Assembly: GCA_001766815.1 (NCBI GenBank)
Contig: LYOS01000008.1
Coordinates: 1 to 32,000, forward strand
Length of the DNA stretch: 32,000 nt
Reading direction: 5' to 3'
Source: Candidatus Syntropharchaeum caldarium
Lineage (GTDB): Archaea > Halobacteriota > Syntropharchaeia > Syntropharchaeales > Syntropharchaeaceae
Shown here: piece after piece, positions 122 through 18,808 of the stretch
Layout of the letters: every line of letters starts with the position of its first letter
Position numbering within the stretch: the first letter of the stretch is position 1
Program-made: the position numbers and the translations under genes
Notes under the pieces: generated by a model
What the model saw: the letters and a program-made list of their open reading frames with translations, nothing else
What the model was told of the DNA's origin: nothing
The model's database searches: none

Positions 122-1057
122 TCACTTCTCAGCGCCTTCAATGATCGGTGCGATCACATCAGGGTAACCAACCGCCATTATGTGGCAGCCAGCACAGTTC
201 TTTTTCTTTCTTATCTCCTTCACAAAATTGACGAAGTAGTCGATATTGAATTCATCGATCTTTTTCTTGCGTTCAGCCTTGTCAGAGATCGCCTTGAATT
301 CCTTGAATGTCTTCAAAAACTCGGGTGGCACGGTAACACCTGATACGAACTTATCAAAGAACTCTGCCTGACCATAAGAACGGGGTGGGAAGATGCCGAT
401 AAATGTCGGTATACCGATGTGCTCAATTGATTCCAGATATGTAAGCGCGATATCCACATCAAATACAACCTGGGTCTGGATGAAATCAGCACCAACCTCC
501 GCCTTCCGCTCCATCTTCAGGACCTCAATCTCAAGCGGCTCCTGGTTCGGGTTTCCAGCAACTCCAATGTTGATCTCAGGCCTTGGTCCCTGCACCTCGT
601 TTCCAGAGAGGTCAGTTCCCTCATATACCATGTGATGGATCAGATCAACGAGCTGGGCCGAGTCAAGATCAAATACAGGCTTTGCGTCCGGGGTGTTTCC
701 CATGTGTGTGTGATCGCCTGTCAGGGCGAGGATATTCTTGAGACCAAAGGCAGCAGCGGCAAGGATATCTGATGCAAGTGCCAGTCTGTTCTTGTCAGCA
801 GTCCTTAGCTGATATACCATCTCAAGCCCCGAGTCACGCTGGATGATGAAGCTTGCAGCAAGGCTCGACATTGCGCTGAAGCTCTGGGGGTTATCGGTCA
901 CATTTGCGGCTGTGATCTTTCCGATCCCCTTCAGGGTCTTTGCCCATTCAACAACATCCCCTATCTCTGTGCTCAGGTTATGTGGCTCAAGCTCACCGGT
1001 ATATACAAATTCACCAGCCTTGATCTTCTTCATCAACTCTGAGAATGCCTCCCCCAT
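122..1057 (-). CDS. metF: Methylenetetrahydrofolate reductase family protein (MetF-type)
   Basis: 311-aa ORF with MTHFR-family blocks: NVTDNP, LRTADKNR, ILALTGDH, FIQTQVVFD. It lies 2 nt downstream of a MetV-type gene. Confidence 0.85.
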   Translation of the reverse strand: MGEAFSELMKKIKAGEFVYTGELEPHNLSTEIGDVVEWAKTLKGIGKITAANVTDNPQSFSAMSSLAASFIIQRDSGLEMVYQLRTADKNRLALASDILAAAAFGLKNILALTGDHTHMGNTPDAKPVFDLDSAQLVDLIHHMVYEGTDLSGNEVQGPRPEINIGVAGNPNQEPLEIEVLKMERKAEVGADFIQTQVVFDVDIALTYLESIEHIGIPTFIGIFPPRSYGQAEFFDKFVSGVTVPPEFLKTFKEFKAISDKAERKKKIDEFNIDYFVNFVKEIRKKKNCAGCHIMAVGYPDVIAPIIEGAEK

Positions 1058-1059
1058 CT

Positions 1060-1719
1060 CTATAACCTCCTCGGATTCATAGCAAGTGTCCGCTTCTTCG
1101 GTGGTCTATATTTCCTGAAAAGATCAAGTCGGTTAAGCTCTTTTGCTCGATGATAGATCAGATACCATGCACAGTCATTCTTTACCATCTCACCATTGAC
1201 CTCCATCGGAAGCTCGCACTTACCCTCAACACATCCTCCACAGGGTCCATTGAGAAGCCCTTTCGCGCATCGAGCCACCGGACAGATACCCCCCGTCTCT
1301 TCGAGAATACACTCACCACATGCAAGACACATCTCATACATCGGGCCCTGTCTGATCTCTTCAGAACCGATGAACATGGTATCCTGTGCCGGACGTGTCC
1401 AGATCTCAGGATAAACTTTGTTAAGTATCTGGACACCAACACCGCACGCAAGCGAGACCATACCATCGTAATCATTCAGTTGAACCCGGAGGTTTCCAAC
1501 CGATTCATCACAGCACTGTTTCACGATGGTTGTAAAACCAGTCTCAATCGGTTTGCCCTCCATCTTTGCCTTCATCTCAATAAGCTTTGCAAGTGTCTCC
1601 GCTTCTTTCAAGCCTCTTGGAGGCTGTGTGCAGCCATCACATCCCACAAAGAGGACTCTTTTGCAGTCTGCTATCGATGCATAGATTTCCTCTAAGGGTT
1701 TTTCCTTGGTTATTATCAT
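1060..1719 (-). CDS. metV: MTHFR C-terminal-domain / zinc-ribbon protein (MetV-type small subunit)
   Basis: Cys-rich hallmark CLACGECILEETGGICPVARCAKGLLNGPCGGCVEGKCE, plus VGCDGCTQPP. I prefer the ATG at 1719 (MIITKEKPLEE) over the ORF-track start at 1803, because the first 28 codons look non-coding. Confidence 0.8.
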   Translation of the reverse strand: MIITKEKPLEEIYASIADCKRVLFVGCDGCTQPPRGLKEAETLAKLIEMKAKMEGKPIETGFTTIVKQCCDESVGNLRVQLNDYDGMVSLACGVGVQILNKVYPEIWTRPAQDTMFIGSEEIRQGPMYEMCLACGECILEETGGICPVARCAKGLLNGPCGGCVEGKCELPMEVNGEMVKNDCAWYLIYHRAKELNRLDLFRKYRPPKKRTLAMNPRRL

Positions 1720-1868
1720 CCTGAATCGCCTCTCAATTATTGTATGATATGACCTTAAGCATATGCTGAATATATTGGTTGATATGATCCTCGATTTATA
1801 CACTATTTAAATTATTCGTTTTTATTTCAAGTGAAAAATATTTACAGAATAAATTGTTACAAATCGCA
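1720..1868. promoter_or_regulatory. AT-rich divergent intergenic/promoter region between metV and the mcrB-like gene
   Basis: 149 nt between divergent start codons. It holds several TATA-like boxes: TTTATACA ~1795, TATTTAAAT ~1804, AAAATATTTA ~1835. It also holds a perfect 10-bp palindrome AGCATATGCT (1758-1767) and the direct repeat TGATATGA (1745-1752 and 1780-1787). No transcription start can be assigned from sequence alone. Confidence 0.5.
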
Positions 1869-3254
1869 ATGTTTTTATATGCACAGGTTAAAACAGGCAA
1901 AGAGGTGACTTACTTGGTTAATAACGATGTTATAGACATTTACGCCGATGATGGGAAGGTTCTGGAAGAAAACATCCCACTGGAGGCTTTAAATCCATAC
2001 AAAAATCAGGCAATCCTCGATATACTTCAGACGATCAGGCGAACAGCACTGGTTGATATCTCGGCACTTGAAACAACGCTCAAGAAGGGGGAGGTTGGCG
2101 GTACGATGAATGTTGGAAGTGAGTGCCATATTCCTGGACGAGAGCTGGACCTACCACTTATGGATCGGATCGAAGAGATCAGAGAAAAAGTTAAAAAAAT
2201 GCTTGAGTTAACTCCAAACGATGATACACTGGTTGAAGTCGTTGATTCACTGATGGTAATCCAGATCCCGTCACGTTCATTTGCGATTGCAACCGACTCA
2301 TCCCAGGTTTATTTTAAACCTGCAATTGCGCTTATAGGTGCTATCTGTGACATCTTCGAGCTTGGTCCTTTTGACGGGCCTGAGATGGTGAAGGCTGCGG
2401 TTTTGGGGCGATATCCGCAGATGATCTCACCCAATGGAGTTATGTCCGCCATTTTATCATTCCCTACAACGATTGAAGGTGCGGGAAATGCGTATCGCAG
2501 CATAAAAGTGAACGACATTGTTGCGCTTGCCAATAAACGAACGTTTGATGCTGCGGCGCTGGGTTCAGTCTTTGAGCATGGTGCAGCCTTTGAGTCGGGC
2601 AACGCGATGGGAGCATACAGGCGGTACCACCTTCTTGGTATGGCATACCAGGGTTTCAACGCCGACAATATGGTCTGGGAGCTCCTGCGAGATCATGGGA
2701 AAGGAGGGCGAATCACCGATATTATCGACGATCTCGTTGAACGTGCCCTGAGGGATAGGGTTATTGAGGTTGAAGAGAAACTGCCATCGGGGTATACTCT
2801 CTATTCAACCCGCGATGCTGCACGCTGGAATGGTTATGCAGCAGCAGGACTGATGGCAGCAGCGATACACAATGCAGGTGTGATGCGATCTGGACAGGGC
2901 GCCCCATCAGCGATGCTCTTTTACAACGAACTGCTCACGTCCCAGACCGGGCTACCCGGGGTCGACTTCGGGAGGGCGCTTTCCACTTCAGTAGTATACA
3001 CATTCCTGACTCATAATACCTACGGTGGCGGTGAGCCAGGCATATTCTCTGCTGAACATCCTGCAACTCGCGGTTCTCGCGGTTTTATTATTCCCTGTGC
3101 AGCAGCTGCAATGTGTCTTGATGCTGGAACGATGATGTTCCCGGCAGAAGCAACTTCAGGAAAGATGTTCAAGCTCAGAGAGATCTTACCTGTTTTCAAA
3201 GACCCCGTAAAAAAAATTGCAGCAGCTGCAGCAGCAGTCTCAGGTGAGGTGTGA
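1869..3254 (+). CDS. mcrB: Methyl-coenzyme M reductase beta-subunit homolog (divergent; MCR/ACR family)
   Basis: Collinear with recalled canonical McrB:
- DIYADDGKVLEENIPLEALNPYKN (cf. [24 protein letters not shown])
- MVKAAVLGRYPQ
- YHLLGMAYQGFNADN
- WNGYAAAGLMAA
- TYGGGEPGIF
- GFIIPCAAAAMCLDAGT
- PAEATSG
The start is uncertain. The ATG at 1869 is given. TTG at 1914, preceded by GAGGTGA (1902-1908), would give an N-terminus of canonical length. The ORF track opens at TTG 1854. Confidence 0.9.
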   Translation: MFLYAQVKTGKEVTYLVNNDVIDIYADDGKVLEENIPLEALNPYKNQAILDILQTIRRTALVDISALETTLKKGEVGGTMNVGSECHIPGRELDLPLMDRIEEIREKVKKMLELTPNDDTLVEVVDSLMVIQIPSRSFAIATDSSQVYFKPAIALIGAICDIFELGPFDGPEMVKAAVLGRYPQMISPNGVMSAILSFPTTIEGAGNAYRSIKVNDIVALANKRTFDAAALGSVFEHGAAFESGNAMGAYRRYHLLGMAYQGFNADNMVWELLRDHGKGGRITDIIDDLVERALRDRVIEVEEKLPSGYTLYSTRDAARWNGYAAAGLMAAAIHNAGVMRSGQGAPSAMLFYNELLTSQTGLPGVDFGRALSTSVVYTFLTHNTYGGGEPGIFSAEHPATRGSRGFIIPCAAAAMCLDAGTMMFPAEATSGKMFKLREILPVFKDPVKKIAAAAAAVSGEV

Positions 3255-3257
3255 GAA

Positions 3258-4925
3258 ATGGATGAGAAGATACTTGACGACTTCAAGCGAATATTCAAGG
3301 AGGAAGATCCAACCAAAAGGGAGACCCAGTTCTATAACTTTGGCGGGAGAACGCAATCAAAGGCCAAGCGTGAATTCATCGAATCAGCAAAGCGCATCGC
3401 AGAAACGCGTGGTATTCCGGGTTATCAGGGAGATCGGGAGGATTTTGGTGTCCCGCTTGGATCGAGATATCTTGAGCCATATCATATCGCAGGAACAGAT
3501 ACGTTCTGTGAAATGGACGACATCCATCAGATCAACAATGCAGCAATCCAGCAGATGGGGGATGACATCAAGCGAACTGCGATAAACGGGCTTGACCTGC
3601 CGCACAGGGTGCTCCAGCAGAAGGTTGGTATAGCGGTCACACCTGAGACGATAAACCGCTACCTTGAAGCTGTAAATCACTCAATTGTTGGCGGGGCACT
3701 CGCACAGGAACATATGGCAGAGATAAATCCCAACATGAGCAAGGATGGTTATGCAAAGATTATAACAGGCGATGACGAGCTCGTGGACAGAATCGATAGT
3801 CGATTTGTGATTGATATCAACAAGGAATACCCCAAAGAAATGGCAGAGAAGCTTAAAAGCAAGATCGGTAATCATCTCTATCAGGTCGCAAGGATACCCA
3901 CAATTGGGGTCAGGATCGCTGATGGTTCAGTTGTCCATCGCTGGAATGGAAATCAGAGCGCACTCGCATTTGTTTCAACATACAACCTCGGAGGCGGCTC
4001 GATACTCGCTGAATTTTCACTCACCGTGAAGCACATGGCATACATGCTCATCGGAACGCCCACATGGCCCCGTAGAGGTCCAAGAGGTGCGAACGAACCG
4101 ATTGGAATACCAAATGGATATATCGGTGACTTCTGTCAGGCAGATGCGGTGAACGACGACCCTGTTCATTACTGTATGGAGGCCATGGCAGTAAGCGGCG
4201 CTATCTATGGTCTGTACTGGTTTAGTAGCTATGTGGTTGGTGGGATCGGCGGTCCAAATACCTTTGCGTCACCCTTCACAAGCGAGCTCCTGACTGATTT
4301 TACATACCATATCTCAGACTGGGTGAAGGAGAAGTACGGCGGATATGTTGCCTGTAAACCATCTTTTGATGTGATAAGGGAGGTTACAGAAGAGGTGAAC
4401 TTCTATGCAATGGAGCAGTACGATAAGTACCCCCTTCTCCTTGAGCACCACTGGGGAGGCGTCATCAGAATCCTGAACCTCAATGCTGCATCTGCTATTG
4501 GGGTCGGGTTTGCAACAGGCAACTCAACAGCAGCCAGTATCGCGAACTATTACTCAGGCGGATTCCTGCAGAAGGAGGCATGGGGAAGGAATAATGTTGG
4601 AGTGGGTGATGCTGCAGAACAGCTCAATATCCCAAACAGCGTTTCTATACGACCAGAAGAGGGCGTAATTCCGGAACTGAAGAGTCCAAACATCCCCGAA
4701 GATTCATATTCAGCATCGCACTTTGTCTCGCTTCCTGCAGCATCTTTCTCGGCACATCGTGCGAGGGGGGATGCATGGTGCTTGAGTCCACTTGTGAAGG
4801 TTGCGTTTGCAGACCCCTCACTCACCTTCGACTTCAAGCATGTGCGTGAAGAGATCGCAAAGGGTGCACGTCGTGAGTTTGTACCATCTGGAATGCGCGA
4901 TCCAATTACACCGGAGGGGCGATAA
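3258..4925 (+). CDS. mcrA: Methyl-coenzyme M reductase alpha-subunit homolog, highly divergent (candidate alkyl-CoM reductase alpha)
   Basis: 555 aa. The N-terminal half tracks canonical McrA: FYNFGG, RGIPGY, NNAAIQQMGDDIKRT, VTPETINRYLEAVNH, AQEHM, FVIDINKEYP, ARIPTI. C-terminal landmarks are retained: PRGANEP, SSYVVGGIG, DFTYH, FATGN, SIRPEEG, ARGDAWCLSPLVKVAFAD. Hallmark motifs are replaced (see findings). The ATG lies 3 nt after the mcrB stop, with GGTGAGGTG upstream. Confidence 0.9.
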   Translation: MDEKILDDFKRIFKEEDPTKRETQFYNFGGRTQSKAKREFIESAKRIAETRGIPGYQGDREDFGVPLGSRYLEPYHIAGTDTFCEMDDIHQINNAAIQQMGDDIKRTAINGLDLPHRVLQQKVGIAVTPETINRYLEAVNHSIVGGALAQEHMAEINPNMSKDGYAKIITGDDELVDRIDSRFVIDINKEYPKEMAEKLKSKIGNHLYQVARIPTIGVRIADGSVVHRWNGNQSALAFVSTYNLGGGSILAEFSLTVKHMAYMLIGTPTWPRRGPRGANEPIGIPNGYIGDFCQADAVNDDPVHYCMEAMAVSGAIYGLYWFSSYVVGGIGGPNTFASPFTSELLTDFTYHISDWVKEKYGGYVACKPSFDVIREVTEEVNFYAMEQYDKYPLLLEHHWGGVIRILNLNAASAIGVGFATGNSTAASIANYYSGGFLQKEAWGRNNVGVGDAAEQLNIPNSVSIRPEEGVIPELKSPNIPEDSYSASHFVSLPAASFSAHRARGDAWCLSPLVKVAFADPSLTFDFKHVREEIAKGARREFVPSGMRDPITPEGR

Positions 4926-4927
4926 GA

Positions 4928-5704
4928 ATGGATGAAAAGAAAGCAAACAGGTATCCGGGTAATGATCCTGTTGGAGCACGGAGAAGGGAACTGCTCAGTC
5001 CAGAATCGAAGTTCAAACGTCTCAGAGAGATCTCTGATAATGATTTAGTCCTGCTGCTTGGGCACAGAAACCCCGGTGAGGAGTACGGCTCAGCACACCC
5101 GCCACTTGATGAACTGGAACAAAAAGATGACCCGATAGCAGATCTCATTGAACCGTCGGCTGGAGCGAGAGCAGGTGACCGGATCAAGTACCTTCAGATG
5201 ACAGATTCTGTCTACTACTCACCTTCAGCACCCACCTTCAGGGGCAGGATGTATCACGTCAGATACCCGGGGATCGATACAATTGTCTATTCTGGAAGAC
5301 AGCTCATGGAAACCCGGGAGCGAGATCTTGAGCTCTATACACGGGAGTTGATGGAGACCGAATTATTTGACGCTGCAAGGACATCGATGCGCGCAATAAC
5401 CGTGCACGGATCATCATTGCGACTTGATGAGAACGGGCTGATGTTTGATGCAAGGCGAAGAACAAGGTATGATCCCGAGACAGGTGAAGTGAGTTATGTG
5501 AAGAACCAGATGGCAATACCGATGGATCGAGCTGTAAATCTTGGAAAGCCGATGGACGAGGAAGAACTGATCTCAATCTCGGTAAGGTATGGTGGGGCAA
5601 GTATACCTTACAGAGATGCAAAAGAGCTCTGGAAGCTCACAGGCAAGATTCTTGAGCAGCATGTTGTGGGTGGCTTCAATCCCACAAAAATTGAGAGACG
5701 ATAG
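4928..5704 (+). CDS. mcrG: Methyl-coenzyme M reductase gamma-subunit homolog
   Basis: 258 aa with canonical McrG blocks: KLREISDNDLVLLLGHRNPGEEYGSAHPPL, GARAGDRIKYLQMTDS, SGRQLMETRERDLE, VHGSSLRLDENGLMFD. The ATG lies 2 nt after the alpha stop, with GGAGGGG upstream. Confidence 0.9.
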   Translation: MDEKKANRYPGNDPVGARRRELLSPESKFKRLREISDNDLVLLLGHRNPGEEYGSAHPPLDELEQKDDPIADLIEPSAGARAGDRIKYLQMTDSVYYSPSAPTFRGRMYHVRYPGIDTIVYSGRQLMETRERDLELYTRELMETELFDAARTSMRAITVHGSSLRLDENGLMFDARRRTRYDPETGEVSYVKNQMAIPMDRAVNLGKPMDEEELISISVRYGGASIPYRDAKELWKLTGKILEQHVVGGFNPTKIERR

Positions 5705-5717
5705 GTGAGAGGAATTT

Positions 5718-6035
5718 TTACTCCTCAACCTCTTCTTCATTTTTGCTTGAATATCTTAAGTACCAGTCTAAAAACTCTGTATAGATGACGACAGATAAGA
5801 ACCCCGCCCATAGGGCGAGGAGTATGTGAATATTGCATATCGAGACCACTCCATTCATCGGTGAAAAGAGCTCAAATGCAAAGAATTCAGCCATCTTTTC
5901 GGGTGTTATGATGGTACCAATAAGTGGTATAAGGATCATTAGCGCAGTACCAAGCCGTGAAGAGAGGTATATGATTACAAGCGCTATTATAGCCGTATAG
6001 ACGATGAAGAACAGTAACGAGAAGATCAGATTCAT
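5718..6035 (-). CDS. Small integral membrane protein (about 3 TM helices), paralog of the N-terminal domain of the upstream gene
   Basis: The 105-aa ORF aligns along its length with residues 1-100 of ORF 6036-7112: LIPLIGTIITPEKMAEFFAFELF / LVPLIGVMIAPEEMAGFLSYELF, and NIHILLALWAGFLSVVIYTEFLDWY / NIHILLAFWAAFLSIVIYTEFLGWY. Its start codon directly abuts the upstream gene's stop. I recognise no family. Confidence 0.6.
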   Translation of the reverse strand: MNLIFSLLFFIVYTAIIALVIIYLSSRLGTALMILIPLIGTIITPEKMAEFFAFELFSPMNGVVSICNIHILLALWAGFLSVVIYTEFLDWYLRYSSKNEEEVEE

Positions 6036-7112
6036 TCAGACAACACCCCACGTCTTATTTCTTTCGATGTAATGTGAGCAAAGATCCAGAATATCGTTTT
6101 TTAGATCCATCGCCCTATCTCTCCCAATGAGCAGACTTGCAGAGCGACCTGCACACTCGGCAAGTTTCTCCAGATCGGTGAGGGCGAGTGAGTCAGGTGT
6201 TATGTCAAGATGGTCTTTGAGCTGGCTTTCAAGGAAGTTTTCCCCTTCGTTCATGTATTTTGCAATGATTGCAAGCAGATCCTGGTATATATCAATCATC
6301 TGGCAGAGTTGATCCAGTGCTGGATCACCCGGTGTGGATGCAGTGGACGGTAGTTCATTTTTCCATTCATGCCACTCCTCTACAATCTTTTTCATCTCCT
6401 CGAGGCCATCCAGGTTGGTACCGCCGGGTATGCTAAGCGCAAAATCCGATTGCTCTTCGGTTTCAATCTCTTTCTCCTCGTTCTTCCTTATTGTAAAGCT
6501 TGTTTTAGCCACCGGTCCTGAACTGAAGCCTGGTGGCGATGTGAAGAGACACAGCTCGCCTCTTCCAGCAACTTCGGGTCTTATAACCGCGATCTCATGC
6601 TCGATATCGCACCTGATCCATTCATCACCGATGGTATCAACAGGCACATCATCTATCTTCGCTTCAATACGAACAAGTACCGCCTTGAACAGTCCAGATT
6701 TGATGATGATCCTGCAGATGAGTGGTTCTCCAACTTCAAGCGAATCATTGTCCACTTCAATACGCGCCTCAAAATTCTCATCTTCAGGAAACTCTATATC
6801 ACTCGATCCAGATCCAGAGGCGGAAATGTGCGCCATATACCAGCCCAAAAACTCGGTATAGATGACAATAGATAAAAATGCAGCCCAGAACGCAAGAAGT
6901 ATGTGAATGTTACGCATCGAGATCGCGCCATCCATGATTGCAAAAAGTTCATATGAGAGGAATCCCGCCATCTCTTCGGGTGCGATCATAACTCCGATGA
7001 GTGGTACCAGCAACATGAAAAGAATGCCTGCAAATGATGAGACATAGATGATGATAAACCCAATAAAAAGAAGATACAGGATCAGGAGAAATAGCGAGAG
7101 TAGAAGATCCAT
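6036..7112 (-). CDS. Membrane protein: N-terminal 3-TM domain plus an acidic soluble C-terminal region, function unknown
   Basis: 358-aa ORF. It has a hydrophobic N-terminus (paralogous to 5718-6035), an SGSGSS linker, a beta-rich segment, then a helical acidic segment. Its start lies 1 nt from the stop of the upstream surface-protein gene. Confidence 0.6.
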   Translation of the reverse strand: MDLLLSLFLLILYLLFIGFIIIYVSSFAGILFMLLVPLIGVMIAPEEMAGFLSYELFAIMDGAISMRNIHILLAFWAAFLSIVIYTEFLGWYMAHISASGSGSSDIEFPEDENFEARIEVDNDSLEVGEPLICRIIIKSGLFKAVLVRIEAKIDDVPVDTIGDEWIRCDIEHEIAVIRPEVAGRGELCLFTSPPGFSSGPVAKTSFTIRKNEEKEIETEEQSDFALSIPGGTNLDGLEEMKKIVEEWHEWKNELPSTASTPGDPALDQLCQMIDIYQDLLAIIAKYMNEGENFLESQLKDHLDITPDSLALTDLEKLAECAGRSASLLIGRDRAMDLKNDILDLCSHYIERNKTWGVV

Positions 7113-8353: not shown

Positions 8354-9124
8354 TTAGCGAATACGAATGAACTTACAATCCGCCCCATAAATCACTTTTT
8401 CATAAATTTCAAGAATTTGAGGCACTTCAAGTTCATCGGGGCGCATATCAAGTAATTTTTCGAGACCTGTGCCAACAGGATCAATTCCCGCCATCCTGAG
8501 CGTCTTTTTTACATGTTTTCTGCGGTTTGAGAATAGCCATCTTACAAAATCTAAAAAGAGGGCTTTATCCTTGATATTATACTTGTTGTGGGGTGTGAGT
8601 CGGATGATGGCTGAATGAACAGCTGGCACAGGATAGAATGCACTCTTTGGAACCTTTTCAAGCACATCAATATCTGAAAACGCCTGAACAGAGACTGCAA
8701 TCCTCCCATACCTCTTTTCTCCTGGTTTTGCTCTCATTCGCTGAATAAACTCTGACTGATAGATCAAAATTCCAAGTTTAAACTCTGATCTGAGGAGTTT
8801 TAGCGTAATATTGGATGAAATTGAATAGGGCAGATTTGATATGACCTTATCAAATTCAGGAAGCTCGATCTTAAGCGCATTTGCGTTTATAATGAATGCA
8901 CCTGGACATCTCGCCTTAATCATTCTTGATAGCTCAGGATCAATCTCGATCGCGTACACCGTATCCGACCGTTCAATAAGGCGAGCTGTAAGATTTCCAG
9001 TTCCCGCACCGATCTCAAGTACCCGATCCTTTCTCGCAACTTCACCGTACTCAACGATCCGATCCAGAATCGCATCATCAAGAAGGGTATGCTGTCCCAG
9101 CTTAGATCTCCTCGTCCTGGACAT
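8354..9124 (-). CDS. rsmA: 16S rRNA (adenine-N6,N6)-dimethyltransferase RsmA/KsgA (archaeal Dim1 type)
   Basis: LGQHTLLD, the SAM-binding VLEIGAGTGNLT, and the NLPYSISS motif. I prefer the start at MSRTRRSKLGQH (9124) over the ORF-track start at 9187. Confidence 0.85.
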   Translation of the reverse strand: MSRTRRSKLGQHTLLDDAILDRIVEYGEVARKDRVLEIGAGTGNLTARLIERSDTVYAIEIDPELSRMIKARCPGAFIINANALKIELPEFDKVISNLPYSISSNITLKLLRSEFKLGILIYQSEFIQRMRAKPGEKRYGRIAVSVQAFSDIDVLEKVPKSAFYPVPAVHSAIIRLTPHNKYNIKDKALFLDFVRWLFSNRRKHVKKTLRMAGIDPVGTGLEKLLDMRPDELEVPQILEIYEKVIYGADCKFIRIR

Positions 9125-10598
9125 AGCTCCTTCTAAGCCTGATCGCAAGTTCTGCTTTTGCAAGTTCAACTCCAAGATAACCTGCATGATCGATCATCGA
9201 GATTTTGCCTGTTTTAGCAAGATATGCGATAATTTCCTTCGCCTTCAGACCCCGTATAATCTCAACTCTCCCATCTGGCATGTTGTGCTCAAGATATATC
9301 ATTCCTTTCTGCACCGCTATCCTGAAGTAGCCGAGTGGATCTGATTTCCACTCCTGCTTTTCTGTAACTGTTACCACATCATCCAGCTCTTCGATCAGGA
9401 CACCCTCGCGTTTACGCTTCTCTTTTGCAACAAAGAGGTCGATTCCAAGATCTTTTGGTGGAGACTGTCTTTTTGATGCGAGCTGCATCATCATCGATGC
9501 TTTGACAAGTTCATTTACGCTTCCCATGGTTTTTCTACTTGCCTCTGGTGCAAAGAGTATTCCAATGCCGAGTTCCATTCCTATTCCTGCAAGAACAGCA
9601 TTTATCCCGACAGAATCTGCATCAATAAGTTCTGTTACATTCCCAACCCCAAAAAATAGCGGTGTTGATTTATCGATCTCTCTGAAACGGTAGTAGTCAT
9701 GGATCGAGCGCGCGATGCCCTCTCCAACCGGTGAAAGGATCGGATCTGCAACTATCTTATCAATTCCAAGCGATCGTGCTATATCAATTACCTCAAAAAG
9801 TTCATCAACGCCACTTCTTGATATTACAACCGCAGATATCTCTGCTTTTGCGATATCTTCTCCGACTGCTTCGATATTCTCTCTGTCAAGGCTCAGGATA
9901 AGATCAGCGCCCGAACTGATTCCTGCCTCAATGAGCGCTGGCTCCATTGTATCAAGACTTACAGGAAGCTCTGTCACGGATTTTGCAACCGCAAGGATGC
10001 GTTTTACATCGTCCACTTCTGCATCAAGTGTGACACCAAGATCGATGATATCGGCGCCCTCTGATTCAAAGTATCTGATCTCCTGCTCAAGTTCCTCATC
10101 TCGGAGTAACGTTGCATCCACGATCTCGGCCATCACCTTCATCGAGGTATTTCCTCCGATCTTAACACCCCTTATCATGAATTCAGGTACACCCGTAGCT
10201 TCAAGCTCGAGAAGCTCTTTCTTTATTGTTTCAAAGTCTCTTTCAGATGACCTGCGCGCTGGAACAGAGTCTGAAAGTTCAATTTCATCAATATTCGCGA
10301 GCAGATCTGGTAAATCATGGGCGTATCTTGTACCAAGTCTTATTTTAACTCCAAACTCTCTCTCCAGCTCACTAAAATTGGATGTGACGTTTCCAGGGAG
10401 CAGTATCAAATCGTAATCTGAGAGATCAATCTTTTTAAGCAGTCTGTAAAGTATTTGGGGTGTCAGGAGCGCTGCAACATCCACATCTGCAACCGCTACC
10501 TCAGCCAGATCTCCAACATAGTTCCTGACAATCTCGGTTGCTCGTCTTCCTGTTATGACAAGGGTTTTCATGACATCATGTCGTTGCTGATCGCTCAT
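9102..10598 (-). CDS. Dihydropteroate synthase-like protein (archaeal pterin-binding family linked to tetrahydromethanopterin biosynthesis)
   Basis: 498 aa. The central region has pterin-binding TIM-barrel-like blocks: GADIIDLG, DTMEPALIEAG, ADLILS, DPILSP, GVGNVTEL. There are extra N- and C-terminal domains, as in the long archaeal DHPS-like proteins. GGAAGG lies upstream of the ATG at 10598. Confidence 0.6.
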   Translation of the reverse strand: MSDQQRHDVMKTLVITGRRATEIVRNYVGDLAEVAVADVDVAALLTPQILYRLLKKIDLSDYDLILLPGNVTSNFSELEREFGVKIRLGTRYAHDLPDLLANIDEIELSDSVPARRSSERDFETIKKELLELEATGVPEFMIRGVKIGGNTSMKVMAEIVDATLLRDEELEQEIRYFESEGADIIDLGVTLDAEVDDVKRILAVAKSVTELPVSLDTMEPALIEAGISSGADLILSLDRENIEAVGEDIAKAEISAVVISRSGVDELFEVIDIARSLGIDKIVADPILSPVGEGIARSIHDYYRFREIDKSTPLFFGVGNVTELIDADSVGINAVLAGIGMELGIGILFAPEASRKTMGSVNELVKASMMMQLASKRQSPPKDLGIDLFVAKEKRKREGVLIEELDDVVTVTEKQEWKSDPLGYFRIAVQKGMIYLEHNMPDGRVEIIRGLKAKEIIAYLAKTGKISMIDHAGYLGVELAKAELAIRLRRSYVQDEEI

Positions 10599-11037
10599 CG
10601 ACCTTCCATCTTGACAGGAAATAATCCATCAATCTTTTGTTTTTATACAACTCCCTTATGTACTCATCTATCGCATGCTGAAAGTCATCGAAATACCGGG
10701 AGACATAAAAATTTATAAAACCATCAGATCTGAACTCAATCCCGCAATCAGTGGGTGCAGGCTCTCTCATCCATACTTTTGCCAGTCCTTTGATGAAATA
10801 TTCGTGTACCAGCCCACATCTCACCCGTTCATATACATCATCGCCATGTTCATCCAGCAACCTGATATATTCTTCACCCAGCTTTTTCAAGCCATGATTG
10901 TAGTTCTTTTTTGCCTGTCCTTCCCTGATCTTGCACCGATACAGCCCACCAAGAAACTCTGTGTAAGCAGAGAGCGCCAGCGCAACCAGATAATTCGCCT
11001 CTCCGTCAATCGCAGCATTAATATCCTTGACCATCAA
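10576..11037 (-). CDS. Hypothetical protein
   Basis: 153-aa ORF of protein-like composition in a gap not covered by other genes. I recognise no family. A TATA-like TTTTTATACC lies about 50 nt upstream on the minus strand. Confidence 0.45.
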   Translation of the reverse strand: MMVKDINAAIDGEANYLVALALSAYTEFLGGLYRCKIREGQAKKNYNHGLKKLGEEYIRLLDEHGDDVYERVRCGLVHEYFIKGLAKVWMREPAPTDCGIEFRSDGFINFYVSRYFDDFQHAIDEYIRELYKNKRLMDYFLSRWKVDERSATT

Positions 11038-11108
11038 ATTCTTAAATTTGCGGATCTTCTCTTCTAACTCTGAGATTCTACCACCCGTGCATCAGGGTAT
11101 AAAAACAA

Positions 11109-12305
11109 TTAAAACGTCGTAATCTTCCCTTCTGATACAAGTTCTGTGATCTCTGTAACTCGCTCAAGCCAATCATCGATGATCCTGGTTATCGCAGGCG
11201 CAATATCATCAACACTCACCCCATTCTTCGGGATGATCTGGGCGTTTGCAACCAGTGGATTATCGATCGGCTGACCAATCTGTGAGAGAATTCTGACTGA
11301 TATCTCCTGAAGGTCTGCGATCTTCTCTATAGCCTCATTTGCGATCTGGGTTGTGAGCAGGTTGTAGATCTTTCCAACGTGGTTCACCGGGTTCTTACCT
11401 GATGTTGCCTCGAGACTCATCGATCTGTTTGGTGTGATGAGTCCATTCGCACGATTTCCTCTCCCAACTGAACCATCATCCCCCATCTCTGCTGAGAGCC
11501 CTGTCACGGTGAGGTATATTGATCCATTCTCAATGTCATCCCCAACGTTTACAAATACCTCAATTTCACGATCTGTGTATGATGACGCAACATCCTTTGC
11601 AAAGGTGGCAATTTCATCCCGTATCGCGACGTAATGATCGATATCATCGACATATCTCGAGACAAAAGCATCTGCGATCGTGACAGTAATCTTATCCTTC
11701 ACTCTCAGTCCCATCACCTTTATATCCTCGCCTACCGCCTTCTCGCGCTTACTGAGATTATTCACCATCTCTCTTTCGATGTTGTAGACGATATTCTCAA
11801 CCTCAGAGAAAGGTGCATGCCCCACACCAAAGGAGGTGTCATTTGCAAGCGGTACCCTGTCTCTGGAGTCAAATATCTCAACAAGATCGTATGAACCTTC
11901 CCCGATCTTACAGTCGATCACCACATCCGTCTCAGGGTTGAGGTTATGGATACTCTCCTGAAGATATGATTTTGCAGCCCTCAATGCGATGACATCGACA
12001 GGCACCTCTTCGTCACCAGCCCATTTTGTCGCTCTTCCATTTAGAAGAATATAGCTAGGGGTGATGATCTCACCACCACCAAAGGCTGGTCTGGACCTGC
12101 CTGCAACAATCGCCACCTCATCGGTGTTGTGGTGGAGTATCATGCCATATCGCTTCTTGTACTCATTGCACAGCGCACGGCTTACAGCTTCTGCAATCCC
12201 ATCGCAGATCGAATCTGGGTGTCCAATACCTTTTCTCTCAACAAGCTCGATCTCCTGAAGTTCGATCGGAAGCTGATGTATCGCCTCAACCTGGATATTT
12301 CGCAT
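11109..12305 (-). CDS. mat: Archaeal-type S-adenosylmethionine synthetase
   Basis: 398 aa with the archaeal MAT signature [17 protein letters not shown] and ILHHNTDEV. Length and layout are typical of the MJ1208 family. Confidence 0.9.
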
Positions 12306-12327
12306 ATCATTTCTCCCATTCTATAAT

Positions 12328-12918
12328 TCAACTTCGATATTCGTCCTTAAGTGGCTTTGGAGGCAGTGGAAATATGCTTCTGAAAGTTTCTGGGTTTTTG
12401 ACCATCTCCTGGAGTTGATTTTTCGTCTCATCCACAAGCACATCCACATACATCATCTCCACAAAGTTTTGACAGGCATCTGCAAGCTCGATAAGACTCT
12501 TGACGTCCTGTTCCATCTGCTCGAATGAACAGGCGAATGGACACGAATTTCTGATTTTATTGATCACATCGAGAAATTGGCGCATCTCCTCCTTCCGATC
12601 AATCGAGTCAAACTGCTGCTGAAAGTGTGATTTAAGTTCTTCAGTATCAAGTTCATTTGCGATTGATATCGGTTTTATACCATCGAACGTTGCAAATATC
12701 AATGGTATGTTGAGGAGGTACTCAATATACGCAGTGTCGATGCTATCTCTTGCACCCATCGCGCACGCAATCCGCTGGTCCTCGACATCCTCATCATCCA
12801 TCTCCGTCATCTTCCTGCACATATTACAGTACTGCCAGAATCGGCTGATAGACTGGTAAAACGATATGACACCTTCGAGTGGTAGTTCTGCCTTAAGTTC
12901 CATATAAACAAAGATCAT
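12328..12918 (-). CDS. Hypothetical protein (acidic, helical)
   Basis: 196-aa ORF between the SAM synthetase and SAH hydrolase genes on the same strand. I recognise no family. The start could be the second ATG (MELKAEL, 12903). Confidence 0.45.
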   Translation of the reverse strand: MIFVYMELKAELPLEGVISFYQSISRFWQYCNMCRKMTEMDDEDVEDQRIACAMGARDSIDTAYIEYLLNIPLIFATFDGIKPISIANELDTEELKSHFQQQFDSIDRKEEMRQFLDVINKIRNSCPFACSFEQMEQDVKSLIELADACQNFVEMMYVDVLVDETKNQLQEMVKNPETFRSIFPLPPKPLKDEYRS

Positions 12919-12960
12919 TCTTTACCTTTAAAGGCTTTTGGATTGAGTGTGCGCTACCCT

Positions 12961-14211
12961 TCACGTTCCAAGTTCCCATGATGAGAGGTACCGCTCCTGT
13001 TCTTCTGTCAGCGTCTCAATCTCAATCCCCATCGATTTGAGCTTGAGGGCCGCAACACGCTCATCGATCTCCCTCGGTACGCCAGTGACTTTTCTTTCAC
13101 GCAGATCGGAGTTTATGATGTATTCAACCGCAAGTGCCTGATTCGCAAAACTCATATCCATCACACCGGGTGGATGACCGTACGCTGCCGCCAGATTGAT
13201 AAGTCTCCCTTCACTCAGGAGATATATCCGCCTGCCATCAGCAAGCGTGTACTCATCAACCTCTTCTTTGACGCGTTTCTTGCTGATTGCAAGCTTTTCG
13301 AGGTCATCAATTGCAATTTCGACATTGAAGTGCCCCGAATTTGCAAGAACTGCCTGGTCCTGCATCAACTCGAAATGCTCACCCCGTATGACCGATGTAT
13401 CACCTGTCACCGTGATGAAGATCTCACCCGTCTTTGCAGCATCATGCATCGGCATCACCTGGTAACCATCCATCACAGCTTCAAGGGCCTTTCTCGGGTT
13501 GACCTCAACCACGATCACATTTGCACCCAGTCCTCTGGCACGCATCGCAACACCCCTGCCGCACCAGCCATATCCGACAACCACCACTTTTCTGCCTGCA
13601 AACAGGAGATTTGTAGCATTCATAATCCCATGCAGTGTCGACTGACCCGTTCCATAACGATTATCAAACATCATCTTTGTTTCAGCATCATTCACCGCGA
13701 TTACCGGAAAAGCGAGTTTGCCAGACTTTTCAAGCGCTCTCAGACGGATCACCCCGGTGGTGGTCTCCTCGCACGCACCCTTTATCGAGTTCATGAGATC
13801 GGGGTAGTGCTCGTGTATATGTGCTATTGTATCTGCCCCATCATCAAGTACAACATCAGGCATGATATCAAGTGCCGCCTCAAGACACGCATAGTACTCG
13901 TCATCGTTTTCCCTGAATGCATAAACCCAGATACCACTTCTGGCGAGCGCTGCAGCAACATCATCCTGTGTGCTCAATGGATTCGATCCGGCAAGTGCGA
14001 TCTCTGCCCCCCCTGCTTTCAGTGTCTTGATGAGGTTTGCTGTCTCAACCGTGACATGCAGACACGCTGTGATCTTCACGCCATCGAGTGGCTTTGTCTC
14101 TTCAAACCGCGATTTTATGAGTTCAAGCACCGGCATGTGCCGCCTTGCCCATTCAATCCGCTCATCCCCAGTATCCGCAAGCTGCAGGTCTTTGACGATA
14201 GATTCTTTCAT
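12961..14211 (-). CDS. ahcY: Adenosylhomocysteinase (S-adenosyl- or S-inosyl-L-homocysteine hydrolase)
   Basis: [36 protein letters not shown], the NAD fold [12 protein letters not shown], and GHFNVEI. The ORF-track start at 14280 is a TTG. I prefer the ATG at 14211 (MKESIVKDL, with GAGGGA upstream), which gives a typical 416 aa. The ATG at 14238 is an alternative. Confidence 0.88.
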
Positions 14212-14314
14212 CGATATTCCCTCATCGTAATTCTCCATCTGCGTTAATAACCTTAACTCCTTCAAATTTCGATCATTCAAGCAATTTTAAATACCTGCCA
14301 GTTAAATCACGTCT

Positions 14315-17801: not shown

Positions 17802-18242
17802 TCAATCTAATGTTTTTGATGTTGTCGTGAGTTTGACGTGTTTAACGCCTTTTAACGACATGATCTCTTCTGTTATCTGTTTGATCTCGCGTATGTTTCC
17901 GCGTGCAAGCAGTATCTCGATGCAGTTGTCATGATCAAGATGTACGTGGAGTGAGGTTCCAAGCAATCCAATTGAGTTGTGCTGGATATCAAGGAGTGTA
18001 TCAGTCAGCCCACGCTGATTGTGGTTGTAGGTGATTGTTATAACCGCAACTTTTTCACCCTCTTCTTCCCCCATCCATTCGTATTCTACGATATAATTTC
18101 TGATCGCATCTCGTATTCCTTCGGATCTCGACGAGTATCCCCTCTTCGTTATTATTTCATCAAAACGATTGAGGAGATTGTCTGGAAGCGAAACACCAAT
18201 ACGCATAAGTTCCTGGTCTATATTAAAACCCCCTTCCTTCAA
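17802..18242 (-). CDS. nikR: Nickel-responsive transcriptional regulator NikR
   Basis: An N-terminal ribbon-helix-helix (RIGVSLPDNLLNRFDEIITKRGYSSRSEGIRDAIRNYI) is followed by a C-terminal metal-binding domain with His-rich blocks (ITYNHN, LHVHLDHDNCIE). The start could also be ATG 18206. Confidence 0.85.
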   Translation of the reverse strand: MKEGGFNIDQELMRIGVSLPDNLLNRFDEIITKRGYSSRSEGIRDAIRNYIVEYEWMGEEEGEKVAVITITYNHNQRGLTDTLLDIQHNSIGLLGTSLHVHLDHDNCIEILLARGNIREIKQITEEIMSLKGVKHVKLTTTSKTLD

Positions 18243-18289: not shown

Positions 18290-18808
18290 TCATTCTATTA
18301 CTTTTGCCTTGCCTGAATGTATTACTGAGACGTCACCAACGTGGCATACTGTACAATCCTTGCCCCTTGGTTCGTGGATTTTCACCAGGTTTCCTTCAAC
18401 AGACGTTGTTGCATCTGGGTATCCATGGCAGTTCTCGCAGACCGTATAAGTTCCAACTGGCTGGGGTATGGTTGGTGGTGTACCATGACAGGTCTTACAC
18501 GGGACTATTGATTCCGGATGAAGCCCGTGAACATCCCCTACGGCACCACCCGGATTTTTATGGCACTGTGTACACTTATCTCCACCGTGCTGGTGTGCAT
18601 CCAGGTCTGCTGCGTTCTTGTGGCACATCAGGCAGCTCATTTCAGGCGTCGTTACAGGTGCCTGTGTCACAATCGGTGTTGGTGTTGGCGTGGGTTGTGT
18701 TGCTATCGGCGTGGGAGTAGCTTCCTCTCCTCCTTCCAGACAGCCTGCAACCCCCACAACAACAAGGACCAACGCTAATGTCACAAACAGATATAATTTC
18801 TTAACCAT
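18290..18808 (-). CDS. Pentaheme c-type cytochrome, probable lipoprotein with Thr/Pro-rich stalk
   Basis: Five CxxCH motifs fall within about 115 residues: CLMCH, CTQCH, CKTCH, CENCH, CTVCH. Six additional His are available as distal ligands. The N-terminus is a signal peptide ending in the lipobox-like VAGC, followed by TPTPIATQPTPTPTPIVTQAPVTTP. AGGTGA precedes the ATG. Confidence 0.85.
   Translation of the reverse strand: MVKKLYLFVTLALVLVVVGVAGCLEGGEEATPTPIATQPTPTPTPIVTQAPVTTPEMSCLMCHKNAADLDAHQHGGDKCTQCHKNPGGAVGDVHGLHPESIVPCKTCHGTPPTIPQPVGTYTVCENCHGYPDATTSVEGNLVKIHEPRGKDCTVCHVGDVSVIHSGKAKVIE

Follow-up and report, generated by a model that had tools for sequence, protein, structure and literature searches.

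Operon and identity of the alpha subunit

The stretch of DNA analyzed here (the window; 32,000 nucleotides of contig LYOS01000008.1 of "Candidatus Syntrophoarchaeum caldarius") encodes, at positions 1914 to 5704, homologues of the beta, alpha, and gamma subunits of methyl-coenzyme M reductase (MCR), in the order B-A-G according to the list of open reading frames (ORFs) and Pfam. The alpha gene at 3258 to 4925, co-encoded with its beta and gamma partners, is the subject of this report. Its sequence makes it probable that the product serves as alpha subunit in a functional alkyl-coenzyme M reductase (ACR) paralogue of a butane/propane oxidizer, and not in a methane-type MCR. The operon contains the following genes.

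1914 to 3254, + strand: beta subunit homologue, 446 amino acids (aa) from TTG 1914 (Pfam MCR_beta_N and MCR_beta)
3258 to 4925, + strand: alpha subunit (AcrA/McrA homologue), 555 aa, intact ORF from ATG 3258 to the stop ending at 4925 (Pfam MCR_alpha_N, 1.8e-96; MCR_alpha, 4.4e-30)
4928 to 5704, + strand: gamma subunit homologue, 258 aa (Pfam MCR_gamma, 5.7e-90), identical to OFV67101.1

A protein search found 100% identity between the alpha protein and OFV67100.1 of "Ca. Syntrophoarchaeum caldarius" (P0001 in our sequence set), which was deposited under the name "methyl coenzyme M reductase subunit alpha." The same sequence was included, as a member of the acrA clade, in the mcrA/acrA source data alignment of Zehnle 2023. 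Because of this identity and inclusion, the object is counted as already known: gene, organism, and ACR family have all appeared in print, and the window alpha is one of the organism's four MCR/ACR paralogues. An earlier note on this DNA, made from the letters alone, had framed the protein as an unusual MCR, and that framing is replaced by the published paralogue. Four divergent MCR homologues are found per Syntrophoarchaeum genome (Lemaire & Wagner 2022; Gendron & Allen 2022). "Ca. S. caldarius" derives from a thermophilic butane-oxidizing enrichment, and butyl- and propyl-coenzyme M were detected in the culture (Lemaire & Wagner 2022); the formation of both compounds by the Butane50 culture is the work of Laso-Perez 2016 as summarized by later reviews (Lemaire & Wagner 2022; Gendron & Allen 2022). 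The possibility that Lemaire & Wagner had modelled the window alpha as their "most expressed" Syntrophoarchaeum ACR was ruled out: the most expressed ACR of S. butanivorans is OFV67021.1 (Lemaire & Wagner 2022), which belongs to a different 90% cluster.

The mechanical ORF of the beta gene starts at TTG 1854 and spans 466 aa, approximately 20 codons more than orthologous beta subunits (444 to 445 aa). Its PDB alignment begins at ORF residue 24 to 25, TTG 1914 is preceded by the ribosome-binding-like sequence GAGGTGA, and the 466-aa form is absent from the protein collection searched. The true start is likely TTG 1914. Between 1854 and 5704 only B, A, and G are present, without mcrC or mcrD, in contrast to the mcrBDCGA-type operon of canonical MCR, and the scan of window ORFs gave no match to a McrC or McrD domain.

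An ordinary methane-forming or methane-oxidizing MCR would agree with the deposited name and with the phmmer search of the PDB, in which methanogen MCR II (E=1e-162) ranks ahead of ethyl-coenzyme M reductase (ECR; E=1e-113). Such an identity is very improbable. The alpha and beta subunits score below the cutoffs of the NCBIfam equivalogs TIGR03256/03257, which represent canonical methane-type MCR (549.3 against 767.75 and 440.8 against 516.25, respectively), and gamma passes its own cutoff (288 against 172). In addition, the operon lacks mcrC and mcrD, the organism does not use methane (Lemaire & Wagner 2022), and Phe330, Tyr333, Phe443, Tyr444, and Gly445 of alpha, which are strictly conserved in 61 canonical sequences, are all replaced.

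Retained cofactor and coenzyme contacts

Reference residues are numbered according to Methanothermobacter marburgensis McrA (3pot_A; 550 aa), obtained from the PDB search; this numbering reproduces the modified residues H257, R271, Q400, G445, D450, and C452. Alignments were made with phmmer against PDB chains, with MAFFT (L-INS-i) for two sequence sets of 46 to 124 homologues, and with a profile hidden Markov model (HMM) of 61 canonical McrA sequences. The window motifs quoted in the earlier note are all present in the translation, and the M. marburgensis motifs that it gave match 3pot_A exactly.

The axial Ni ligand of cofactor F430 is Gln147, or Met in some ECR-type enzymes. It is retained in the window alpha, as had been proposed, together with a block of coenzyme B (CoB)-anchoring and modification sites.

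3705 to 3707, + strand: Gln150 (equivalent to the axial ligand Gln147) in GGALAQEHMAE, invariant in 42/42 aligned homologues
4029 to 4076, + strand: Lys258-His259 (Lys256/N-methyl-His257) to Arg272-Arg273 (Arg270/5-methyl-Arg271), from the alignments

Equivalents of Gln230 and the CoB-anchoring Arg225 are also kept in alpha. The beta motif FLTHNTY preserves the equivalents of Phe361, His364, and Tyr367 (F-x-x-H-x-x-Y in the PDB alignment), and gamma Arg124 in SGRQ corresponds, at a constant offset of 4 to 3pot_C, to Arg120, which contacts the sulfonate of coenzyme M (CoM). The window proteins therefore have the axial ligand and the F430- and CoB-anchoring residues that the superfamily requires.

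Three assignments made by eye were displaced by the computed alignments. Leu had been placed at the N-methyl-His position, but the modified His257 (AAKHAEV) is conserved as His259 (TVKHMAY), and the residue compared was His262 of EVIHMGT. The Arg reported as kept is R273 of M. marburgensis; methylation falls instead on Arg271, the second Arg of VRRA, which the window alpha retains as R273. SSYVVGGIG had been taken as the context of the active-site Tyr, but its Tyr is Tyr323, and the real Tyr333 (GFTQY) is lost as Thr335 (GGPNT).

Retention of the McrA fold was borne out by an AlphaFold2 model of the alpha subunit (pLDDT 85.7; pTM 0.90), with TM scores of 0.94 to 0.95 and a root mean square deviation of ~1.9 Å against solved McrA chains and a TM score of 0.93 against ECR.

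Remodelled substrate and coenzyme pocket

Three segments lining the active site differ from the reference.

4251 to 4262, + strand: GPNT (residues 332 to 335) in place of FTQY (330 to 333), from the phmmer and MAFFT alignments
4452 to 4466, + strand: WGGVI (residues 399 to 403) in place of FGGSQ (396 to 400), from the alignments
4707 to 4715, + strand: YSA (residues 484 to 486) in place of Met480-Asn481-Val482, beside the CoB thiol, from the alignments

The first segment contains F330G (G332), T331P, Q332N, and Y333T (T335), and both the hydrophobic-cage residue Phe330 and the CoM-contacting Tyr333 are lost. The second contains F396W, S399V, and Q400I, with Ile403 at the 2-methyl-Gln400 position, as read by eye. 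Ile, His, or Glu occupies position 400 in MCR homologues, and the divergent coenzyme-binding residues of Syntrophoarchaeum homologues, with Ile400, have been noted together with a residue-level figure (Lemaire & Wagner 2022). The third comprises M480Y, N481S, and V482A, and further changes are M324V, S325V, and L320F. One residue is deleted in loop 239-246, a deletion tied to an open cleft for bulky alkanes (Lemaire & Wagner 2022). In the hydrophobic cage, the alpha residues Phe330, Tyr333, and Phe443 have become Gly, Thr, and Val, and beta Phe361 and Tyr367 are unchanged.

These changes are concentrated in the active site. Of the 26 named active-site positions that are at least 95% conserved in canonical McrA, 16 are changed, compared with 63 of the 198 other positions conserved to that level (79/224 in total; Fisher p=0.004); the 26 are cofactor and coenzyme contacts attributed to Ermler 1997 and Grabarse 2001. 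Twelve of the 26 are already changed in P0095, one of the 596-aa homologues (P0090 to P0095) labelled ECR-type from length and PDB similarity only, and in P0097, which represents the main Syntrophoarchaeum ACR cluster, including OFV67021.1. Among the ACRs compared, pocket remodelling goes furthest in the window protein (16/26 versus 12/26).

Whether the substitutions are already standard in ACRs, which the earlier note had raised against its own reading, depends on the position. Loss of Tyr333, F396W, a residue other than Gln at 400, a small residue at 444, a residue other than Tyr at 446, and changes at 480 to 482 are generic ACR features, and the changes at C452, M480, N481, and V482 belong with these. 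In contrast, F330G, G442N, F443V, and G445V are clade specific. Beyond the generic pattern, the window clade adds F330G, M324V, and S325V; G442N, F443V/A, and a non-Gly residue at 445 are particular to the window type and its orthologues (P0002 to P0004).

The 79 changed canonical residues, and the weak expression of relatives in Alkanophaga, could be taken as marks of a decaying, nonfunctional gene copy, a reading with very little probability. All three genes of the operon are intact, no cofactor-binding residue varies, and at least three Syntrophoarchaeum species carry orthologues in a syntenic setting (the B-A-G operon and its metFV neighbourhood). The dN/dS ratio is ~0.07 relative to the 80%-identical S. 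butanivorans orthologue, with dS near saturation, and the alpha gene is under strong purifying selection.

Val at the thioglycine position

Thioglycine has been described as a strictly conserved modification of MCR, and all solved MCR structures as well as ECR contain it. The equivalent loop in the window alpha is as follows.

4590 to 4610, + strand: NNVGVGD (residues 445 to 451), ungapped in phmmer, MAFFT, and the canonical profile HMM

The stretch reads R-N-N-V-G-V-G-D-A-A-E-Q-L, and Val449 (nucleotides 4602 to 4604) fills the Gly445 column in all alignments. The canonical signature F-Y-G-Y/F-D around Gly445 is replaced by V-G-V-G-D, and the loop changes are G442N, F443V (V447), Y444G (G448), G445V (V449), Y446G (G450), D450E (E454), and C452L (L456). 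The substitutions first seen by eye (Val for the thioglycine, Gly for both flanking Tyr residues, Glu at the didehydro-Asp position, and Leu at the S-methyl-Cys position) were all recovered, as was the gap-free alignment of the stretch at equal length, on which the three methods agree. Posteriors of the profile HMM are 9 to * without an indel across the loop, and the published alignment of Zehnle 2023 has the same register. The tryptic peptide carrying the Val449 loop is NNVGVGDAAEQLNIPNSVSIRPEEGVIPELK, as the R-P bond is not cleaved.

A local register shift, in which the flanking Gly448 or Gly450 occupies the thioglycine site and is thioamidated, would relocate the modification by one residue. 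The invariance of Gly at 444 across the clade and its frequency at 446 are compatible with a shift, and AlphaFold2 models this loop with its lowest confidence. Nevertheless, a shift is quite unlikely. From anchor KE..GR to anchor S(I/L)R..EG, the loop is of one length and free of gaps in all 46 diverse homologues. An alignment in which an indel places Gly on the thioglycine site, named in the earlier note as the outcome that would overturn its reading, was sought with phmmer, the two MAFFT sets, and the canonical profile HMM, and none was obtained. Within one cluster of the neighbour-joining tree described below, P0009 (FGGQD) and P0006/P0007 (FGSQD) differ in motif 443-447 at position 445 alone; this G-G-Q versus G-S-Q contrast separates columns 444 and 445 and therefore argues against a hidden one-residue shift. 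The 596-aa ECR-type sequences read A-G-Q, with Gly in the 445 column in the same register.

Because the Gly445 position is Val449, a thioglycine is impossible in the protein as predicted from the gene. Position 445 would carry either an ordinary amide or a thioamidated residue other than glycine. YcaO thioamidates Met82 of Escherichia coli uL16 and also its M82A variant; since it acts on such non-Gly residues, a thioamide on Val449 is possible. Loss of the thioglycine had been taken to bear on the need for a YcaO/TfuA-type modification. That does not follow from Val at 445, because the genus keeps at least one ACR with Gly445 (OFV67021.1) and YcaO can thioamidate non-Gly residues. Genes for ycaO, tfuA, mamA (methanogenesis marker 10), mcmA, and mgmA were sought in the 32-kb window, and none was found among the 29 ORFs scanned with Pfam and NCBIfam.

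Distribution of residue 445 among relatives

In a rough neighbour-joining tree, the window alpha groups with MCR homologues of Syntrophoarchaeum, Alkanophaga, and Archaeoglobi, outside the canonical cluster. Column 444 is Gly throughout this clade, and column 445 is variable. Val is found in S. caldarius, Ile in S. butanivorans and a third Syntrophoarchaeum species, and Gln in P0004. Ser occurs in a second Syntrophoarchaeum paralogue type (L009/P0006/P0007) and in "Ca. Alkanophaga" (P0008), and Ala in uncultured Halobacteriota metagenome-assembled genomes (MAGs; P0014 to P0021). Gly is present in P0009 to P0013, including Archaeoglobi, and in the P0023, ECR, and Bathyarchaeota-like types.

It is a tentative and rather doubtful proposition that a branch of ACR paralogues has dispensed with thioglycine, comprising the Val/Ile window type, the Ser types of Syntrophoarchaeum and Alkanophaga, and the Ala types of Halobacteriota MAGs and OFV68676.1-like proteins. 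In such a branch, the thioamide may be unneeded for Ni-alkyl chemistry on larger alkanes, the Val, Ile, Ser, or Ala may itself be thioamidated, or the reaction may be other than primary alkane activation. No explicit statement of Gly445 loss in ACRs or Syntrophoarchaeum paralogues was found in the searchable literature, and the pattern is a modest, apparently uncommented point on a known object. It leaves the identity of the gene, a published ACR of a published organism, unaffected. Paralogues in which 445 is Val, Ile, Ser, Gln, or Ala offer natural test cases of whether the thioamide is needed for nickel-alkyl catalysis, and they bear on whether the methanogen-type YcaO acts on non-glycine residues of McrA. 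The lone, highly expressed acrA retains Gly445, which operon-encoded paralogues have lost, and the pattern may help to sort the four Syntrophoarchaeum paralogues into main and accessory enzymes. The strongly expressed lone acrA of Alkanophaga has ycaO as its direct neighbour (Zehnle 2023). The ORFs adjoining the lone acrA in neighbourhood L005 have no Pfam match.

Residues other than Gly at 445 were also seen elsewhere. The S. caldarius paralogue OFV68676.1 (P0132/P0244), encoded outside the window, has Ala445 in an otherwise canonical L-G-F-Y-A-S-D and Met in the axial-ligand column. Among remote MCR homologues, Ala is found in P0128/P0098 (labelled "Ca. Methanosuratus") and Ser in P0129 (labelled a Methanomassiliicoccales MAG). 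Three odd McrA-like sequences (P0141, P0150, and P0154) have degenerate active-site motifs; one, of 740 aa, has a long N-terminal region resembling pentapeptide repeats, and the other two lack the N-terminal part and have long unrelated C-terminal tails. A gene for a 296-aa radical SAM protein, a possible modification enzyme, lies immediately upstream of a Ser445-type mcrBAG operon in another Syntrophoarchaeum species (L004, 7694 to 8584, + strand).

Comparison with characterized enzymes

ECR of "Ca. Ethanoperedens thermophilum" (PDB 7B1S) is the only solved non-methane ACR and has the same alpha2beta2gamma2-type subunits and fold as the window proteins. The ECR-type sequences P0090 to P0095 share with the window alpha the Gln in the axial column, the loss of Tyr333, F396W, a non-Gln residue at 400, a small residue at 444, a non-Tyr residue at 446, C452L, M480Y, and changes at 481 and 482. 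ECR keeps Phe330, an aromatic residue at 443, and Gly445, with the thioglycine observed, whereas the window alpha has F330G, G442N, F443V, and G445V. The window alpha also lacks the ethane-specific insertions of ECR (555 aa versus 595 to 597 aa), which are specific to ethanotrophs (Lemaire & Wagner 2022). In ECR, such insertions in alpha, beta, and gamma make up the gas tunnel, and the 596-aa ECR-type homologues show additional aligned segments that are missing from the window alpha.

Identity to MCR I/II of M. marburgensis (3POT/5A0Y and 5A8R) is 43% over the full length (TM 0.95). Both have the axial Gln, Arg225, Lys256, His257, Arg270, and Arg271 in alpha, F361, H364, and Y367 in beta, and R120 in gamma. 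They differ in the alpha cage and coenzyme contacts, in the replacement of Gly445, Gln400, Asp450, and Cys452, in the deletion in loop 239-246, and in the B-A-G operon without C and D.

OFV67021.1 of S. butanivorans (623 aa), encoded by a lone acrA, comes from the same genus and family and shares the ACR-type changes at 333, 396, 400, 444, 446, and 480 to 482. It is only ~39% identical to the window alpha, falls on another branch of the neighbour-joining tree, and keeps Phe330, Phe443, and Gly445, and its gene is separate from those of B and G.

The operon-encoded Acr of "Ca. Alkanophaga" (P0008 cluster; MDF2955404.1 and MDF2957193.1) is closer, with 58% identity, a B-A-G operon, and a place in the same clade. 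Phe330 and Tyr333 are lost in both, position 444 is Gly, and position 445 is not Gly. Unlike the window alpha, it keeps Phe443 and Gly442 and has Ser445 instead of Val, and metFV is absent beside the operon in L001. The strongly expressed acrA of Alkanophaga is a lone gene, and the authors left open the function of two weakly expressed Acr clusters (Zehnle 2023). The relative of the window alpha lies in a B-A-G operon and is therefore not the lone strongly expressed acrA but falls among the weakly expressed clusters.

MCR of ANME-1 (PDB 3SQG) comes from the same class, Syntropharchaeia, and has Val in place of Gln400, where the window alpha has Ile. According to published descriptions, methane is its substrate, and hydrophobic cage and thioglycine site are both preserved. 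The Gln400-to-Val change in ANME-1 accommodates methylthio-F430 (Lemaire & Wagner 2022).

Proposed function

The alpha subunit is predicted to support the same nickel-F430/CoM/CoB chemistry as MCR and ECR (alkane + CoM-S-S-CoB <-> alkyl-S-CoM + HS-CoB), because conservation extends to each anchoring residue that could be assessed. The substrate chamber would be enlarged for a C3-C4 or larger alkyl group, since Gly, Val, Thr, Ser, and Ala stand in alpha where MCR has bulky aromatic or polar residues. In the chamber wall, the replacements are F330G, Y333T, F443V, Y444G, Y446G, M324V, S325V, N481S, and V482A. The Gly, Val, and Thr replacements fit the larger cavity expected of an enzyme of a butane/propane oxidizer, in agreement with the widening that the earlier note had deduced from the loss of aromatic residues. 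A modified F430 is also conceivable at the Gln400-to-Ile pocket, by analogy with the Gln-to-Val change of ANME-1 that accommodates methylthio-F430.

Several points weigh against an alkane-activating ACR. The catalytic role of this paralogue is predicted, and its B-A-G relative in Alkanophaga falls among weakly expressed Acr clusters. In the butane culture, only ~2% of cells are "Ca. S. caldarius." The enlargement of the pocket is deduced from side chain sizes, and the lowest-confidence stretch of the AlphaFold2 monomer model is the thioglycine-loop region (pLDDT 61 to 71 for residues 441 to 470). Finally, Tyr333 and Asn481, which serve as contacts to CoM and CoB in MCR, are lost, and this could reflect a changed position of the coenzymes or a different substrate.

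[quoted passage not shown] The extent of pocket remodelling, which exceeds that of the ECR-type and main Syntrophoarchaeum ACR sequences, is in line with this, as are the weakly expressed Alkanophaga Acrs whose function was left open (Zehnle 2023) and the conserved adjacency of metFV. Divergence of this kind is unlikely, as all cofactor- and coenzyme-anchoring residues and the beta and gamma contacts are kept, the window has no accessory gene that points to new chemistry, and several ACRs for different chain lengths or positions of attack would be a simpler reading. An alkane-activating ACR paralogue is therefore preferred.

Genomic neighbourhood

Two genes lie upstream of the operon and are divergent from it.

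122 to 1057, - strand: metF-like gene (Pfam MTHFR)
1060 to 1803, - strand: metV-like gene (Pfam DUF5981)

The metF/metV pair is found beside this mcrBAG in three Syntrophoarchaeum species (window 122 to 1803, - strand; L002, 4261 to 8554; L003, 287 to 1884; and L006, 805 to 2486). The adjacency provides genomic context, and a functional link to the operon is putative. In S. butanivorans, genes for an HdrA-like flavoprotein (870 aa) and an FlpD/MvhD-like protein lie directly beyond the pair. The set of metFV, HdrA, and FlpD/MvhD resembles a MetFV-Hdr-Mvh-type methylene-tetrahydrofolate/tetrahydromethanopterin (H4MPT) reductase module.

Directly downstream of the operon are two tandem ORFs (5718 to 6035 and 6036 to 7112, both - strand), which have a paralogous hydrophobic N-terminal region of ~100 aa in common; neither has a Pfam match. 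A methyl-cycle/pterin cluster at 9102 to 14280 (- strand) encodes a dihydropteroate-synthase-like protein (TIGR00284), an archaeal SAM synthetase, and an SAH hydrolase and includes two small ORFs without a family match (10576 to 11037 and 12328 to 12918). The only methanogenesis markers among the scanned ORFs of the window, which belongs to a nonmethanogen, are marker 8 (TIGR03275; 23017 to 23886, + strand) and marker 6 (TIGR03272; 31067 to 31504, + strand); in methanogens, marker 6 belongs to the machinery that activates MCR. A NikR-type nickel-responsive regulator (17802 to 18242, - strand) adjoins a small c3/c7-type multihaem cytochrome (18290 to 18808, - strand).

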